Shown: piece by piece, positions 1 to 52,199 of the stretch
Position numbering within the stretch: position 1 is the stretch's first letter
Layout: each line of letters opens with the position of its first letter
Source: an uncultured Gammaproteobacteria bacterium
Lineage (GTDB): Bacteria > Patescibacteriota > Patescibacteriia > UBA9934 > CAZDDW01
Length of the DNA stretch: 64,000 bases
Assembly: GCA_965231015.1 (NCBI GenBank)
Contig: OZ246408.1
Span: 396,488 to 460,487 of the forward strand
Direction: 5' to 3'
Program-made: the position numbers and the translations under genes
Notes under the pieces: generated by a model
Told to the model about the DNA's origin: nothing
Databases searched by the model: none
The model's input: the letters and a program-made list of their open reading frames with translations, nothing else

Positions 1-162
1 TAATCCCTCCCTAGGGTTGGTGTTTTGTGCCTTATTTGGTCCACGTGGGTAAAATAACGCACAGTTATAACGAACTAAGGATAATAGCACAAAATCAGCC
101 TTTTGTCAAGAGGATTTAGGGCTGAATTTAACTTATTTTAGCTTTTTTTACTACTGTTCTGC

Positions 163-191
163 TTGACAAAAACACTGATTCATGATAGAGT
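163..191 (+). promoter_or_regulatory. sigma70-type promoter (TTGACA -17 nt- TAGAGT) driving the structured RNA below
   Basis: TTGACA at 163-168, 17-nt spacer, TAGAGT at 186-191; read directly. Confidence 0.5.
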
Positions 192-197
192 GTATTC

Positions 198-425
198 TCG
201 GTCTTGAATTCCGCCTGGATGCGGCCCGCCCGATAGGGTTGTCAAACCCGCTCCCGCCCCCTACTCGGGCGGGTCGTACTCCAGGCATCAATGTTCCTTC
301 CACCAAAACCAACATCGCTTCGGCGAGGACAAAGTCATAAAAGAGTGTTTTGGTGGCAATACGAACGTTGAGCGTCTCTGACGGGACTAAGTACAACCGC
401 AAGGTGTGGAACAGTCCCGTCTTTA
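198..425 (+). ncRNA. candidate structured non-coding RNA (~225 nt), family unknown
   Basis: GC-rich block in AT-rich flanks. 9-bp GC helix (CCCGCCCGA/TCGGGCGGG). Perfect 10-bp helix CCACCAAAAC/GTTTTGGTGG enclosing a C(UUCG)G tetraloop hairpin. GCAA tetraloop. Terminal hairpin GACGGGACU/AGUCCCGUC followed by UUU. The only ORF here (151-435, minus strand) is low-complexity and implausible. Confidence 0.55.
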
Positions 426-533
426 TAATTTTCAATTTTCAGTTTACAAATGAATGATCAATGACCAAATTTCCAGACTTGAACCTTGAAAATTGTAAAT
501 TCGTAAATTGAAAATTTCTGCTATAATGTAACC

Positions 534-1820
534 ATGTCAACTAAACATATCATCCAAAATTATCAAGAGCTGGCGACCACCAAACAGCGTCGTGATGCTT
601 TAGCGATTCTCGAAACCGGGTACAAAGCTGTTGATACTGGTGAAGCGGTACGTCGTTCAGTCAAGCTTAAGGGTTCTGTTCTAACCATCCAAAATCGACG
701 TTATGATTTAGATAAATATAAACGGGTGGTTTTGGTTGGAATTGGAAAGGCCGCCTATGAAGCCTCATACGCGCTGCAGAAAATCATGAAATCTCGTCTA
801 AAGGAAGGGATCGTGCTTGATGTAAAGTGTGACGGAAAGCTTAAAAATATCACTTGCTTTGACGGAACTCATCCCATGCCGAGCGAGAAAAATAGTCGAG
901 CTACTGCCAAGATTATGGATCTTGTTAACTCGCTCGATTCTCATGACCTTCTTTTAACAATTGTCTCTGGCGGAGGTTCAGCACTCCTTTGTCAGCCTTA
1001 TAAAATGCGCCGTGGTGAGCTCGTGATGATTACCAGGGCACTGATGAACGCCGGGGCAACCATAGAAGAGCTTAATACGGTACGCAAACATTTGTCCGTG
1101 ATTCAGGGCGGTCAGTTGGCACGCATGGCTCATCCGGCTACGGTAGCTAGTCTCGTTTTTTCCGATGTGCCCGGCAATGGGCTTACCATTGTTGCTTCAG
1201 GACCCACAGCCATGGACGATACTACTATTACTGACGCGGCCAAGGTTCTGACAAAGTACAAAATTATGAAGGCCTGTCCAATTCCGGGGTGTGATTTGAT
1301 CGAAACTCCAAAAGATCCGGTCTTTTTTAAAAAAGTCAGGAATTTTTTAGTGGTCACTAATCGAGTAGCAGTTAAGGCTATGCAAGAAGAAGCCCAAAAA
1401 CGTGGCTACAAGGCTCGGGTATACTCGGTTCGGCTCGTGGGCGAGGCTCGTGAGGTAGGGAAAGATTTGGCTAAAGCGGTCCGGGCGGGCGAAGCTTTGA
1501 TTGCGGCCGGAGAAACTACCGTGACCGTAAAAGGTGATGGCAAGGGCGGTCGAAACCAGGAACTTGCTCTTGGAGCGCTGGTCAATTTGCCGGATAACGT
1601 GCTGGTTAGTTCAGTGGCAAGTGATGGAATTGATTATACTCCGATTGCCGGGGGAATTGCTGATAAAAAAACTCTGGAAATTGTGGAAAAAAAGAAGTTG
1701 GATCCGCACGAAGCATTAAAAACCAACAATGCTTATCCTTTTTGGAAGAAAACCGGCAGTGCAATAAAAACCGGGGACACCGGAATCAATGTTTCAGACC
1801 TTATGCTTGCTCTTAAATAA
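534..1820 (+). CDS. glycerate kinase (MOFRL/GckA-TtuD family)
   Basis: 428 aa; family-typical N-terminal and C-terminal MOFRL-like regions by recall. -10-like TATAAT at 523-528 immediately before the ATG. Confidence 0.65.
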   Translation: MSTKHIIQNYQELATTKQRRDALAILETGYKAVDTGEAVRRSVKLKGSVLTIQNRRYDLDKYKRVVLVGIGKAAYEASYALQKIMKSRLKEGIVLDVKCDGKLKNITCFDGTHPMPSEKNSRATAKIMDLVNSLDSHDLLLTIVSGGGSALLCQPYKMRRGELVMITRALMNAGATIEELNTVRKHLSVIQGGQLARMAHPATVASLVFSDVPGNGLTIVASGPTAMDDTTITDAAKVLTKYKIMKACPIPGCDLIETPKDPVFFKKVRNFLVVTNRVAVKAMQEEAQKRGYKARVYSVRLVGEAREVGKDLAKAVRAGEALIAAGETTVTVKGDGKGGRNQELALGALVNLPDNVLVSSVASDGIDYTPIAGGIADKKTLEIVEKKKLDPHEALKTNNAYPFWKKTGSAIKTGDTGINVSDLMLALK

Positions 1821-1939
1821 CCCCATAAACACTGTGTATACTTGGCTTTCCACTTAAGGCTAAATAGGCTAGACTAAAAATAAGGGGTTTTTGCTTGTGG
1901 ATAAGCATAAGCCGGTCTAAGTCAATAATTTAGATAAAT

Positions 1940-2137
1940 ATGGCCGATGATGACCAGAAACAGGGCACAATCGGTTATTGCGTTAAGTGCAAGGCTAAGC
2001 AGGAAATGACCGATGAGGAGCAGGTCGAAATGCCTGCCAAAGGTGGTAAAACCCGCCCGGCACTTAAAGGCAAGTGCTCTCAATGTGGAACTGGCATGTT
2101 TAAAATTTTGCCAAGTTCTGCTAAAAAAGATGACTAA
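1940..2137 (+). CDS. small zinc-ribbon protein (DUF5679-like, CxxC...CxxC)
   Basis: 65 aa with CVKC...CSQC pairs. Confidence 0.5.
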   Translation: MADDDQKQGTIGYCVKCKAKQEMTDEEQVEMPAKGGKTRPALKGKCSQCGTGMFKILPSSAKKDD

Positions 2138-2235
2138 GTCATGCAAAATGGCTCGGAAAACTCCGGGTCTTTTGCGTTGACAAATATACAAAAATACGCT
2201 AAAATATAGGGGTTATATTTAATAATCTATTCATT

Positions 2236-2787
2236 ATGGGATTTTTAGGCGGATTATTCGGTCGCGAAGGTGGGTCAGATCCACGCGAGGCTGAAGCACG
2301 AAAAATGCAAGCAGAAAAAATCGTAGGCAACATCATGGAAAATATCGAAGTGCCGGGCGACAAACAGAAGGCCATTAAACAAAAATTGGAGGTAGCGGTT
2401 AATTCACAGCTTAGCATGGGGATGAACGAAGAAGCTGCAGCAGAACAAGCAACGCGAATTTTGGAAAAAGAACTCGGTGATGTAACAGCCGGAACAGAAC
2501 AGGCTGAGGGATCGCGTTTGCAGGAAAGTTCTCGAGAGGCCTTGCAGGAGCTGATTGCTGACTCTAAGAATGAAGGTGCCATGCAAAAGTTTATTCTCAA
2601 CCTTGCCCGAGAAGAGGGAATGGAATTGGGAGAGATAGAAGAAATGAAAGGTTTGGCCGCAGGATTCATAGAAAACTATTCACAGTATTTGCCACAGGAT
2701 CCAAATGATGAGGCCCAGTTAGATCGATTTATTGATGCGGTCAAGAAACAAATTCAGGTACGCCGTGGTCAAAAGAAGGCTGCATAA
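2236..2787 (+). CDS. hypothetical acidic protein
   Basis: 183-aa ORF, followed by a strong intrinsic terminator. Confidence 0.5.
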   Translation: MGFLGGLFGREGGSDPREAEARKMQAEKIVGNIMENIEVPGDKQKAIKQKLEVAVNSQLSMGMNEEAAAEQATRILEKELGDVTAGTEQAEGSRLQESSREALQELIADSKNEGAMQKFILNLAREEGMELGEIEEMKGLAAGFIENYSQYLPQDPNDEAQLDRFIDAVKKQIQVRRGQKKAA

Positions 2788-5004: not shown

Positions 5005-5175
5005 GGGGCACGGCTGACCTGGTTTGATCACCGTTCGGCCTGGTTGTCTTTAAGAGTAAAATATTTCTGGCCTCACTCGGCGTCGGCCAAACAAGACCGA
5101 ATTGATTGAGAGAAGTTCGATTTGTCAGTTTGTCCTCCGATCGTGCTCAAACCAGGTCAGCCTCGCCTGATAGAG
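5003..5175 (+). ncRNA. conserved structured leader element, copy A (candidate cis-regulatory RNA)
   Basis: Perfect 16-bp closing helix (5012-5027 GGCTGACCTGGTTTGA with 5147-5162 TCAAACCAGGTCAGCC). Internal blocks shared with copy B at 11174-11352 (see findings). Confidence 0.5.
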
Positions 5176-11174: not shown

Positions 11175-11352
11175 CAGGGGGGGCTCGGAAATATAATATT
11201 GGCACCGTTCGGATCGGACGGTGCTTAATTTTATTGAAGGTGTCAGACCTCACTCATACGTCGACCAAACAAGACTGAATTGGTTAACCAACGTTCGATC
11301 TGGCGGTTTGGCCTCCGAACGTGCTGTGATATATTTCCTCGCTATAAGGGGG
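11174..11352 (+). ncRNA. conserved structured leader element, copy B
   Basis: Shares CACCGTTCGG, CTCACTC, CCAAACAAGACYGAATTG, GTTCGAT and CCTCCGANCGTGC blocks with copy A. Closing helix AAATATA (11189-11195) with TATATTT (11330-11336). Confidence 0.5.
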
Positions 11353-11373
11353 GTGGAGTGGTACAATGAATTT

Positions 11374-11952
11374 ATGAACTCGAATCAACAAATAACGGAT
11401 CTTCGAATCAAGGGGCGTGAGGGGTATGGTTTAATTCAAGTCTTTACCGGGGACGGCAAGGGTAAAACCACTGCCGCTCTTGGTGAAGTTTTGCGTTGTG
11501 TGGGCGCGGGCAAAAAATGTGGAGTAGTGTTTTTTGATAAGGGCGGCGAGCATTACTCGGAGCGTCGCGTTCTTGATCAGCTTGGGGTTGATTGGTGGAG
11601 TAGTGGTCGAGATCGAATTGATCCACAAACCGGTCGCTTTGATTTTTCTGTGACTGACCTAGATAAAACCGAAGCGATTGGTGCACTTAGCATTGCTTTG
11701 GAACTGTTTAAACAGGCCAGTCATGATCTGATTGTTTTAGACGAAATAAATGTGGCTATGGATAAGGGGATGATAGAAACCGAACAGGTTTTAGACTTAT
11801 TGAAAATCAAACCAGCCATGACCGAATTAGTTTTGACCGGTCGCGAAGCACCGGAGCCGATTCTAAAGGCCGCTCACCTGGTGACAGAAACTAAACTAAA
11901 AAAACACTACTTTTATAGTGGTGTTCCGGCGCGGGAAGGTCTGGATTATTAA
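11374..11952 (+). CDS. cobO: cob(I)yrinic acid a,c-diamide / corrinoid adenosyltransferase (CobO/BtuR family)
   Basis: GDGKGKTTAALG P-loop, VLDE motif. Start chosen at the first in-frame ATG after the leader element; the ORF track extends to 11221 across the element. Confidence 0.7.
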   Translation: MNSNQQITDLRIKGREGYGLIQVFTGDGKGKTTAALGEVLRCVGAGKKCGVVFFDKGGEHYSERRVLDQLGVDWWSSGRDRIDPQTGRFDFSVTDLDKTEAIGALSIALELFKQASHDLIVLDEINVAMDKGMIETEQVLDLLKIKPAMTELVLTGREAPEPILKAAHLVTETKLKKHYFYSGVPAREGLDY

Positions 11953-30845: not shown

Positions 30846-30966
30846 CCTCCTGGTTCAGCAAGTAAAGGTTCTACTTCCGCTATCCTCCGCTACGGATCTC
30901 TTTCTTATCACAAAATCAGCAAAATGTCAACTGTTTGATAATAGTTGAACAAAATTGGGTTAGGAA

Positions 30967-31004
30967 TAGGGGGGTACGGTGTTTGTTCGTAGGTACGAAA
31001 AAGT
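30967..31004 (+). repeat. 38-bp direct repeat, copy 1 (TAGGGGGGTACGGTGTTTGTTCGTAGGTACGAAAAAGT)
   Basis: Identical to 31543-31580; contains an internal GGTACG...GGTACG direct repeat and TACG-N9-CGTA. Confidence 0.8.
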
Positions 31005-31020
31005 GGTATATTGATAAAGT

Positions 31021-31545
31021 ATGAAAAAAGAATCTAAACAAATTAATAACTATACTCAAAATGTCTTTGTGACATTGGTGGACATGTGGGACGTGTTGAG
31101 TACCTCGAGACAATACAGAAGCCTAGAGGATCGAAATATTGCTCATGATTATGCAAGACACAAAGATTATTTTGATAAACAAAAAAGGAATCGGGCGATT
31201 GCAAATTTAAAAAAGAAAAAGTGGATCGAATCTCGCAAAAAAGGAGAATCGATCGAATACAAGTTGACAGAGGAGGGGTTGAAAGCTGCAATAAAACTCG
31301 ATGCCTACTACACAACCAAGCTTTTAAAAGATGGTAAAAAATGTTTTGTATTTTTTGATTTTCCTGTGGCTGCAAATAAAGCTCGTGATGAGTTTCGGTA
31401 CACATTAAAACAATGTGGCTTTAAATTGTGTCAGCAGAGTATCTGGGTTTCGAATAAAAACATAGGTCCACAAATCGCATACTTAGCAAAAGCACTTGAT
31501 GCCTCCGAATGGGTTCGTGTTGTAGTAGGGAAAGAAATTGATTAG
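31021..31545 (+). CDS. winged-helix DNA-binding protein with uncharacterized C-terminal domain (weak Cas2/VapD-like pattern)
   Basis: KKWIESRKKGESIEYKLTEEGL resembles a PadR/MarR-type wing; the C-terminal VFFDFP...FRYTLKQCGFKLCQQSIWV pattern is a low-confidence call. Confidence 0.5.
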   Translation: MKKESKQINNYTQNVFVTLVDMWDVLSTSRQYRSLEDRNIAHDYARHKDYFDKQKRNRAIANLKKKKWIESRKKGESIEYKLTEEGLKAAIKLDAYYTTKLLKDGKKCFVFFDFPVAANKARDEFRYTLKQCGFKLCQQSIWVSNKNIGPQIAYLAKALDASEWVRVVVGKEID

Positions 31546-31580
31546 GGGGGTACGGTGTTTGTTCGTAGGTACGAAAAAGT
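31543..31580 (+). repeat. 38-bp direct repeat, copy 2 (overlaps the stop codon of 31021-31545, sits upstream of rarA)
   Basis: perfect match to copy 1. Confidence 0.8.
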
Positions 31581-31637
31581 TGTCATCTGATCTTGCGTTG
31601 ACTAGGTTCAGTACATTCTGTACCTTGTACCTACACT

Positions 31638-52071: not shown

Positions 52072-52199
52072 GTAAGAATTTTCAATTTTCCAATTTACTA
52101 ATTTTCAATGTTGGAGGCTGTTTGGTATTTTACAGTCAAATGAACCTTGGATTTTTGAAAATTCAATGAAAATTGGATATTGAAAACTGTAAATATTTT

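Follow-up and report, generated by a model that had tools for sequence, protein, structure and literature searches.

A lineage-restricted, highly structured orphan RNA encoded upstream of a glycerate kinase gene in Candidatus Uhrbacteria

Trans-encoded small RNA (sRNA) genes of bacteria, among them LhrC1–5, Qrr1–5, PrrF1/2 and RsmX/Y/Z, are units of a few hundred nucleotides (nt) with their own sigma-70 promoter and intrinsic terminator, and are non-coding, lineage-restricted and fast-evolving. Larger, more ornate RNAs such as OLE, GOLLD, ROOL, raiA and HEARO/omega RNA form GC-rich, intricately folded islands running from promoter to terminator in AT-richer genomes, and share the GC-rich intergenic region as their discovery signature. 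For the Candidate Phyla Radiation (CPR, or Patescibacteria), full-text searches of the literature found no regulatory or structural RNAs beyond rRNA, tRNA and introns, and nothing on non-coding RNAs of Candidatus Uhrbacteria or on kinase-associated motifs. The subject of this work is a 64,000-nt stretch of contig OZ246408.1, referred to as a whole as the window, and an RNA gene within it at 198–432 on the plus strand, upstream of a glycerate 2-kinase gene. Relatives of this kinase are annotated as Candidatus Uhrbacteria or Patescibacteria, a protein identical to it is encoded on a 1.0-Mb NCBI contig, and the host genome belongs to Candidatus Uhrbacteria, within the CPR. The RNA is a real, previously undescribed and lineage-restricted orphan structured RNA; the kind of element is known, the family is new. 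It shares the gene anatomy of trans-encoded sRNAs and the discovery signature of the ornate RNAs; however, it is far more helical and stable than most seed-pairing sRNAs, its conserved part being a three-way junction rather than a seed, and at only ~230 nt it gives no covariance-model match to the latter and is not associated with tRNA arrays, prophages or IscB/TnpB genes. With moderate confidence, 198–432 is proposed to be an independent gene for a stable non-coding RNA of ~230 nt that would act in trans, by binding protein or serving as a scaffold, around a junction core. Below, W denotes the window RNA or its kinase locus, and L002, L005, L089, L091, L095 and similar labels denote loci of relatives.

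The gene is preceded by a sigma-70-type promoter (Table 1) that matches the consensus at 10 of 12 positions and has an extended −10 element (TGaTAGAGT); the spacing to the −10 box would place the transcription start at about 197–200. Promoter-like sites are not enriched in window 1–2300 (4 found, 3.6 expected), so the match is suggestive evidence for an RNA gene and not proof alone. The same promoter shape, TTGACAAAA...TG.TAnnnT, stands before the RNA units of relatives. The transcribed block has a GC content of 0.56–0.59, compared to 0.45 for the window and ~0.35 in the flanks. A preliminary description of this DNA had noted a TTGACA-17-TAGAGT promoter followed by a GC-rich block; both are present, and every element it described lies within about one base of the position it was given.

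The same description had considered the only open reading frame (ORF) it noted, 94 aa on the minus strand, unconvincing. The ORF exists at 151–435 and is homologue-free, a collection of 5.8 billion proteins containing no homologue of it and not even the protein itself. Short plus-strand ORFs of W and L005, read frame by frame by hand, lie in different frames across the conserved module described below, and those of W lack Shine–Dalgarno sequences. When W was tested as a type I toxin mRNA, its sole internal ORF (AUG at 291, 26 aa, basic) was found to have no Shine–Dalgarno sequence and not to be conserved. Judged from sequence, window 198–432 is non-coding and holds no credible or conserved ORF.

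Folding of the plus strand predicted a strongly stable structure, with a minimum free energy of −100.5 kcal/mol for 198–432 and three well-defined domains, H1, H2 and H3. Pair probabilities reach 0.96–0.99 in the main helices and 0.70–0.78 in the short inner ones. The GC helix of the preliminary description, GGCCCGCCCGA/UCGGGCGGGUC, is part of H1, in which positions 213–233/265–286 pair with a probability of 0.99. The three-way junction carried by H2 is closed by Pa, a perfect 10-bp helix (CCACCAAAAC/GUUUUGGUGG, 300–309/347–356), and includes the UCGC-UUCG-GCGA hairpin Pb with its UUCG loop (315–318/323–326), the mini-hairpin Pc (GAC-AAA-GUC, 328–330/334–336) and a purine-rich junction strand, AUAAAAGAGU, at 337–346. 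The terminator stem of H3 has a pair probability of 0.99 with no competing fold in the ensemble; the terminator was missing from the output of a simple terminator scan. All motifs noted earlier, namely the GC helix, the 10-bp helix with its UUCG hairpin, the GCAA tetraloop and the terminal hairpin with U-tract, recur in the predicted fold. Compared to dinucleotide shuffles, the plus-strand fold gave z-scores of −6.9 and −8.3 in two runs, with none of 200 shuffles as stable, and the minus strand gave −3.3. Such an asymmetry between the strands is expected when G-U pairs matter, and points to selection at the RNA level.

Conservation was located in the junction. A covariance model built from W 288–425 alone, using W's own minimum free energy structure, gave a single match within 102.8 kb of related loci, at L005 4823–4879 on the plus strand (28.2 bits, E = 3.2e-5), and only the self-match in a further 297 kb. 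The match is a 58-nt three-way-junction module inside the syntenic RNA of L005, the closest relative available. All 15 base pairs of the module are kept between W and L005, 7 of them with compensatory changes and none broken, whereas slid controls showed 0–1 compensatory changes; in Pa, 6 of 8 pairs are compensatory. Sequence itself is conserved in the Pb stem and in the junction strand (AU.AAAGA..GU), and a searchable signature of the module, with 24 specified bases, reads UCGC-N4-GCGAGGA-N2-AA-N-UCAU-N-AAAGA-N2-GU. By this alignment at least one RNA is a true homologue of W, with covariation to support it, but only over about one quarter of the length of W. The covariation that the preliminary description had proposed to look for was therefore found in the module (300–356) and not in H1 or H3; H1 has no alignable counterpart in any relative, and H3 likewise none in the relatives. 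A joint model of W and L005 found no further copy in L002, L089, L091 or L095. Separately, collinear anchors between W and L005 picked by eye (UCGGUC, CUGGA.G.CG, GGUUGUCAA and AACGU...UCUC) were no better than shuffles (z = 0.7) and are not relied on.

In the proposed mechanism, transcription would start at the strong sigma-70-type promoter of the gene and end at its own intrinsic terminator, and the transcript would fold into a 26-bp GC rod, a stem that bears the three-way junction, and a terminator hairpin of compound form. The junction at 300–356 is treated as the functional core because it is the sole part conserved with the syntenic L005 RNA, while the rest of the molecule would turn over quickly. 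The RNA, probably abundant, would act in trans in an RNA–protein complex, in which its partner would recognise the purine-rich strand of the junction together with the invariant stem Pb. Within Candidatus Uhrbacteria, W would then be the small, local example of a fast-evolving RNA locus that precedes the kinase gene and differs in copy number among genomes.

The main rival, regarded as unlikely, is a trans-acting base-pairing sRNA, in which the 5′ tail (198–212), the C-rich apical loop of H1 or the linker at 372–379 would pair with mRNAs, for example at ribosome-binding sites, and control their translation or stability. A promoter and intrinsic terminator of its own are typical sRNA gene anatomy, lineage restriction and fast evolution are shared with most such sRNAs, and the 5′ tail and C-rich loop (UCCC, CCCGCC) are free. 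Tandem multicopy sRNA genes are known in LhrC, Qrr and PrrF, and related loci likewise hold tandem units (three in L089, at least three copies in L091). However, the best duplex energies with ~60 translation-initiation regions of the window were no better than those of shuffled controls, and no extended antisense match was found in the window; nor is there a repeated GGA or UCCC loop motif, and units in relatives reach 470–750 nt. A protein-binding role is preferred over base pairing because the RNA is mostly helical, its accessible strands are short and its conserved part is a structured junction rather than a single-stranded seed, and because the candidate seeds are not conserved and show no target complementarity above the null in the window. 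A sponge of the CsrB/RsmZ type was also tried and rejected, as the hairpin loops of W and eight related units share no recurrent motif (A/GGA).

Several observations weigh against the protein-binding proposal. The homology of the module rests on one relative, L005, and the reciprocal model, built from L005 alone and run over 141 kb, ranked W 299–357 first but weakly, with 13.9 bits and E = 1.4. By sequence alone (blastn, Smith–Waterman with shuffles, shared k-mers, chained anchors and nhmmer), W matched all syntenic RNAs only at background, with nhmmer profiles giving E = 0.05–0.17. The base-pairing target screen covered only ~6% of the genome. No partner protein is suggested by the genes nearby; most have no known function, and they carry no RNA-related domains. 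Finally, RNA–protein scaffolds do not usually contain long near-perfect helices of the H1 type, which could instead be substrates of RNase III.

Comparison with known families left the RNA unrecognised, as the preliminary description had found from motifs. Rfam 15 returned one tRNA only for the whole window at gathering thresholds, and noise only for a 461-nt query (100–560) at E ≤ 10 with permissive filters; models for 6S, signal recognition particle (SRP) RNA, RNase P, tmRNA, riboswitches and large non-coding RNAs did not match the W region. No second copy of W was present in the window, and blastn against phage and plasmid collections gave no match. A resemblance by eye to helices h27, h44 and h45 of 16S rRNA was dropped, the small-subunit rRNA models giving no match.

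A housekeeping RNA (6S, SRP, RNase P or tmRNA) so diverged in the CPR as to escape Rfam would agree with the size, strong promoter and stability of W, which fit an abundant RNA. The sequences of 6S RNAs diverge fast. 6S RNA (SsrS, RF00013) resembles W in its ~200 nt, its presumed abundance and stability, its promoter and terminator anatomy and its poor sequence conservation across phyla. However, W consists of three separate hairpin domains, its 5′ tail is free, and it has neither the 5′/3′ closing stem nor the central-bubble rod of 6S RNA; it likewise lacks the P4 and conserved-region motifs of RNase P, the tRNA-like end or tag ORF of tmRNA and the domain IV motif of SRP RNA. A housekeeping RNA should also align between genomes whose kinases are 56–69% identical, and its copy number should not range between 0 and 3 or more, whereas the RNAs of this locus vary wildly in copy number and length between related genomes. 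This explanation is considered highly improbable. The earlier suggestion of an independent sRNA, 6S-like or other, is accordingly kept as to independence and given up as to likeness to 6S RNA.

Riboswitch or attenuator leaders are likewise structured RNAs that immediately precede a metabolic gene and finish with an intrinsic terminator, and the preliminary description had offered an attenuating leader of the glycerate kinase gene as an alternative. Such a leader, attenuator or riboswitch would act in cis, and binding of a ligand or protein would lift termination at H3. Several Uhrbacteria keep the RNA immediately in front of the kinase gene, and within H1 the sequence GGGCGGG could pair with either of two C-rich segments, GCCCGCCCGA or UCCCGCCCCC. 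However, the ensemble contains no anti-terminator that would compete with the terminator, W matches none of the known aptamer classes, and beyond an AT-rich spacer of ~100 nt the kinase gene is served by a separate extended −10 box, an arrangement repeated in L005, L002 and L089. Each of the three units of L089 has its own promoter and terminator, a Bestrophin-like gene lies between RNA and kinase gene in L091 and L095, and kinase genes in other contexts (L090, L093, L097) have no such RNA upstream. A read-through transcript should moreover be poorly translated, since the kinase ATG at 534 has no Shine–Dalgarno sequence. Because of the separate −10 box, the spacer and the terminator without a competing fold, W is taken to be an independent transcript and not a leader; the attenuator proposal did not hold up and is now quite improbable. 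The preliminary description was right that the kinase gene has its own −10 box, which lies at 522–527, one base from the 523–528 it had given.

The kinase mRNA is probably leaderless, to judge from the position of this box and the start codon. An extended −10 (TGnTAnAAT) ending 5–8 nt before the kinase ATG, with no Shine–Dalgarno sequence, was observed at window 519–536, L005 4985–5003, L002 3985–4003 and L089 2918–2937, which suggests leaderless mRNAs in these Uhrbacteria.

Wherever the synteny of the kinase gene with a DUF5679 gene holds, GC-rich, gene-free units lie upstream, with a same-strand TTGACA...TAnnnT promoter and a terminator. The units measure 230–750 nt across relatives, and the syntenic RNAs of L005, L002, L095, L089 and L091 have z-scores from −3.3 to −10.7, favouring the plus strand; no Rfam family matches any of them. 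Those of L002 and L095 are 74% identical and consist of conserved blocks and swapped variable hairpins. Between them 27 of 124 pairs are compensatory, compared to 0–5 with the partners slid, a contrast inflated by deriving the structure from the same alignment; well-aligned helices account for ~14 of the 27. The copies in L091 are nearly identical in their 5′ halves and differ in their 3′ halves, suggesting a modular build. Two ORFs lie wholly inside RNA units on the opposite strand, one of 193 aa at L091 627–1208 (minus strand), which the record annotates as a gene, and one of 150 aa at L002 3112–3564 (minus strand); both are probably spurious.

Comparison of W with the units of L002/L095, L091 and L089 gave Smith–Waterman z-scores of at most 0.9, k-mers at the null level and no matches with covariance models R1 and R3. 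What W and these larger RNAs have in common is where they lie and how they are oriented, the promoter and terminator that bound them, and a GC-rich, structured character; the relation is one of position and type, and descent is not demonstrated. In size and complexity the 470–750-nt units of relatives, with their conserved blocks and swapped hairpins, are similar to the large ornate RNAs. It is conceivable, and put forward only tentatively, that W is the smallest member of an Uhrbacteria-specific, locus-bound set of modular RNAs of ~230–750 nt, present in 1 to at least 3 tandem copies with their own promoters and terminators, which would keep their junction cores while peripheral hairpins are swapped or expanded faster than the neighbouring proteins diverge. 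If true, reduced CPR genomes would harbour a new class of bacterial RNAs of the large ornate type, and such RNAs might form RNA–protein complexes or take part in evolutionary conflict.

Table 1. Coordinates of the predicted features of the RNA locus in the window, and of the RNA units at the same locus in relatives (percentages are kinase identities to W).
Feature	Position	Strand	Description
Divergent promoter, TTGACA-17-TATTAT with TG	81–109	−	Serves the minus-strand gene starting just left of the window
Sigma-70-type promoter of W RNA	163–191	+	−35 TTGACA 163–168; 17-nt spacer; TG 183–184; −10 TAGAGT 186–191
Predicted 5′ end and single-stranded 5′ tail UCGGUCUUGAAUUCC	198–212	+	Unpaired probability >0.7 for 202–210
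Domain H1	213–286	+	26-bp GC-rich rod, two bulged C, 20-nt apical loop
Domain H2	288–371	+	Basal helix P0, 9 bp, 288–296/363–371, pair probability 0.98–0.99; carries the three-way junction
Three-way-junction module	300–356	+	Pa, Pb, Pc and purine-rich junction strand
Single-stranded linker GCGUCUCU	372–379	+	From ensemble pair probabilities
Domain H3, intrinsic terminator	380–432	+	9-bp GC-rich stem 380–388/413–421; inner CC-GCAA-GG hairpin; U-tract UUUAUAAUUUU 422–432
AT-rich spacer	433–518		26–34% GC, imperfect inverted repeats; separates RNA from kinase promoter; outside the RNA
Extended −10 box of kinase gene, TGcTATAAT	519–527	+	Ends 6 nt before ATG 534; TATAAT at 522–527
Glycerate 2-kinase gene (DUF4147 + MOFRL)	534–1820	+	Conserved downstream neighbour of W RNA
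L005 (69%)	L005 4466–4975		One ~470-nt unit, z −9.8
L002 (56%)	L002 3123–3855		One ~690-nt unit, z −9
L095 (55%)	L095 1–565		Homologue of the L002 unit
L089 (60%)	L089 1773–2925		Three tandem units of ~230, 350 and 470 nt
L091 (57%)	L091 1–2100		At least three tandem paralogous ~700-nt units
P0008 locus (56%)			1.07-kb gene-free gap upstream

A further scan of genome contigs for closer homologues yielded one locus, a metagenome scan yielded mostly distant kinases (35–50% identity), and protein and pattern scans of viral contigs yielded nothing useful. DNA around the identical kinase and an 87% relative (P0002) came only from Logan contigs that start 30–35 nt upstream of the gene. Three independent Logan assemblies in all (L001, L003 and L004, from this species and the 87% relative) break 30–35 nt upstream of the kinase ATG, their position 1 corresponding to window ~499–504, which hints at a repeat or at strain-level variability at the RNA locus. 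As a matter of speculation, fast turnover, copy-number variation and assembly breaks hint at either weak constraint outside a small core or diversifying selection.

Such breaks, of the kind seen at repeats or strain-variable sites, also count in favour of the explanation that the locus is no functional RNA, being instead a palindromic or selfish element at the DNA level (REP-, BOX- or MITE-like) or a decaying remnant between a promoter-like site and a terminator. REP/BIME, BOX, Correia and RUP repeats likewise form long stable intergenic hairpins of modular build and variable length between strains; the inverted repeats of W are very long and nearly perfect (26 bp in H1, 10 bp in Pa), the content and length of the locus vary greatly between genomes, and a near-perfect hairpin of ~220 nt lies nearby in L088. 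However, W is single-copy in the window and absent from ~400 kb of related loci except for the syntenic module, and its fold stability is strongly strand-asymmetric. Compensatory changes keep the module helices while the sequence changes, and a consensus promoter and a terminator lie on the same strand for every unit in every genome. A DNA-level element is accordingly rated improbable.

The L088 hairpin itself, at 546–780 on the minus strand, is a rod-like structure with rpmG/tRNA on one side and, on the other, a lipoprotein-like ORF that precedes the kinase gene. Its z-scores are −9.2 (minus strand) and −4.1 (plus strand), with no Rfam match and no clear promoter.

CPR genomes of ~1 Mb have little room for dispensable sequence. 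Because the literature searches found no CPR RNAs of this sort beyond rRNA, tRNA and introns and the genomes are small, a strongly promoted and very stable orphan RNA such as W offers a tangible lead towards unexplored RNA biology of the radiation, and relatives give up to ~2 kb of the locus to tandem structured RNAs of up to ~750 nt each. The 58-nt module provides a signature for searches, and the locus a defined target for metatranscriptomics and pull-downs. If W is an ordinary species-level sRNA, the gain is smaller, consisting of an annotation and of clearing away false ORF calls, the 193-aa 'gene' of L091 among them.

The spacer downstream of the RNA has an AT-rich related copy of 433–520 at window 52077–52104. 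Analogous AT-rich palindromic spacers occur at L002 3845–3925 and L095 555–640, and are followed by the DnaA-box-like sequences TTTTCCACA and GGGGATAAC. A replication origin was considered; the DnaA box is absent from window 1–533, and across the whole window 27 DnaA boxes were counted with 17.7 expected, marginally above chance, as 4 of 100 shuffles reach 27. On the other side of the RNA gene, the minus-strand gene assigned to the divergent promoter has a GGAGGG ribosome-binding site at about 5–10 (minus strand).

Elsewhere in the window, a ~125-nt element occurs in two copies that are 76–81% identical, at 5033–5160 and 11203–11330. The first lies upstream of an ORF starting at ~5190 (glycosyl-hydrolase-like) and is flanked by an inverted repeat (5007–5031/5143–5167, 88%), and the second lies at the 5′ end of a BtuR/CobA-like ORF (11221–11952). 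Rfam gave no match to the element, even when relaxed to E ≤ 1, and the two sequences are predicted to share a hairpin; another unrecognised RNA with a cis-regulatory role may lie here. The ORF at 31021–31545 is bracketed by a direct repeat of 44 nt, whose copies at 30964–31007 and 31540–31583 are 95% identical.

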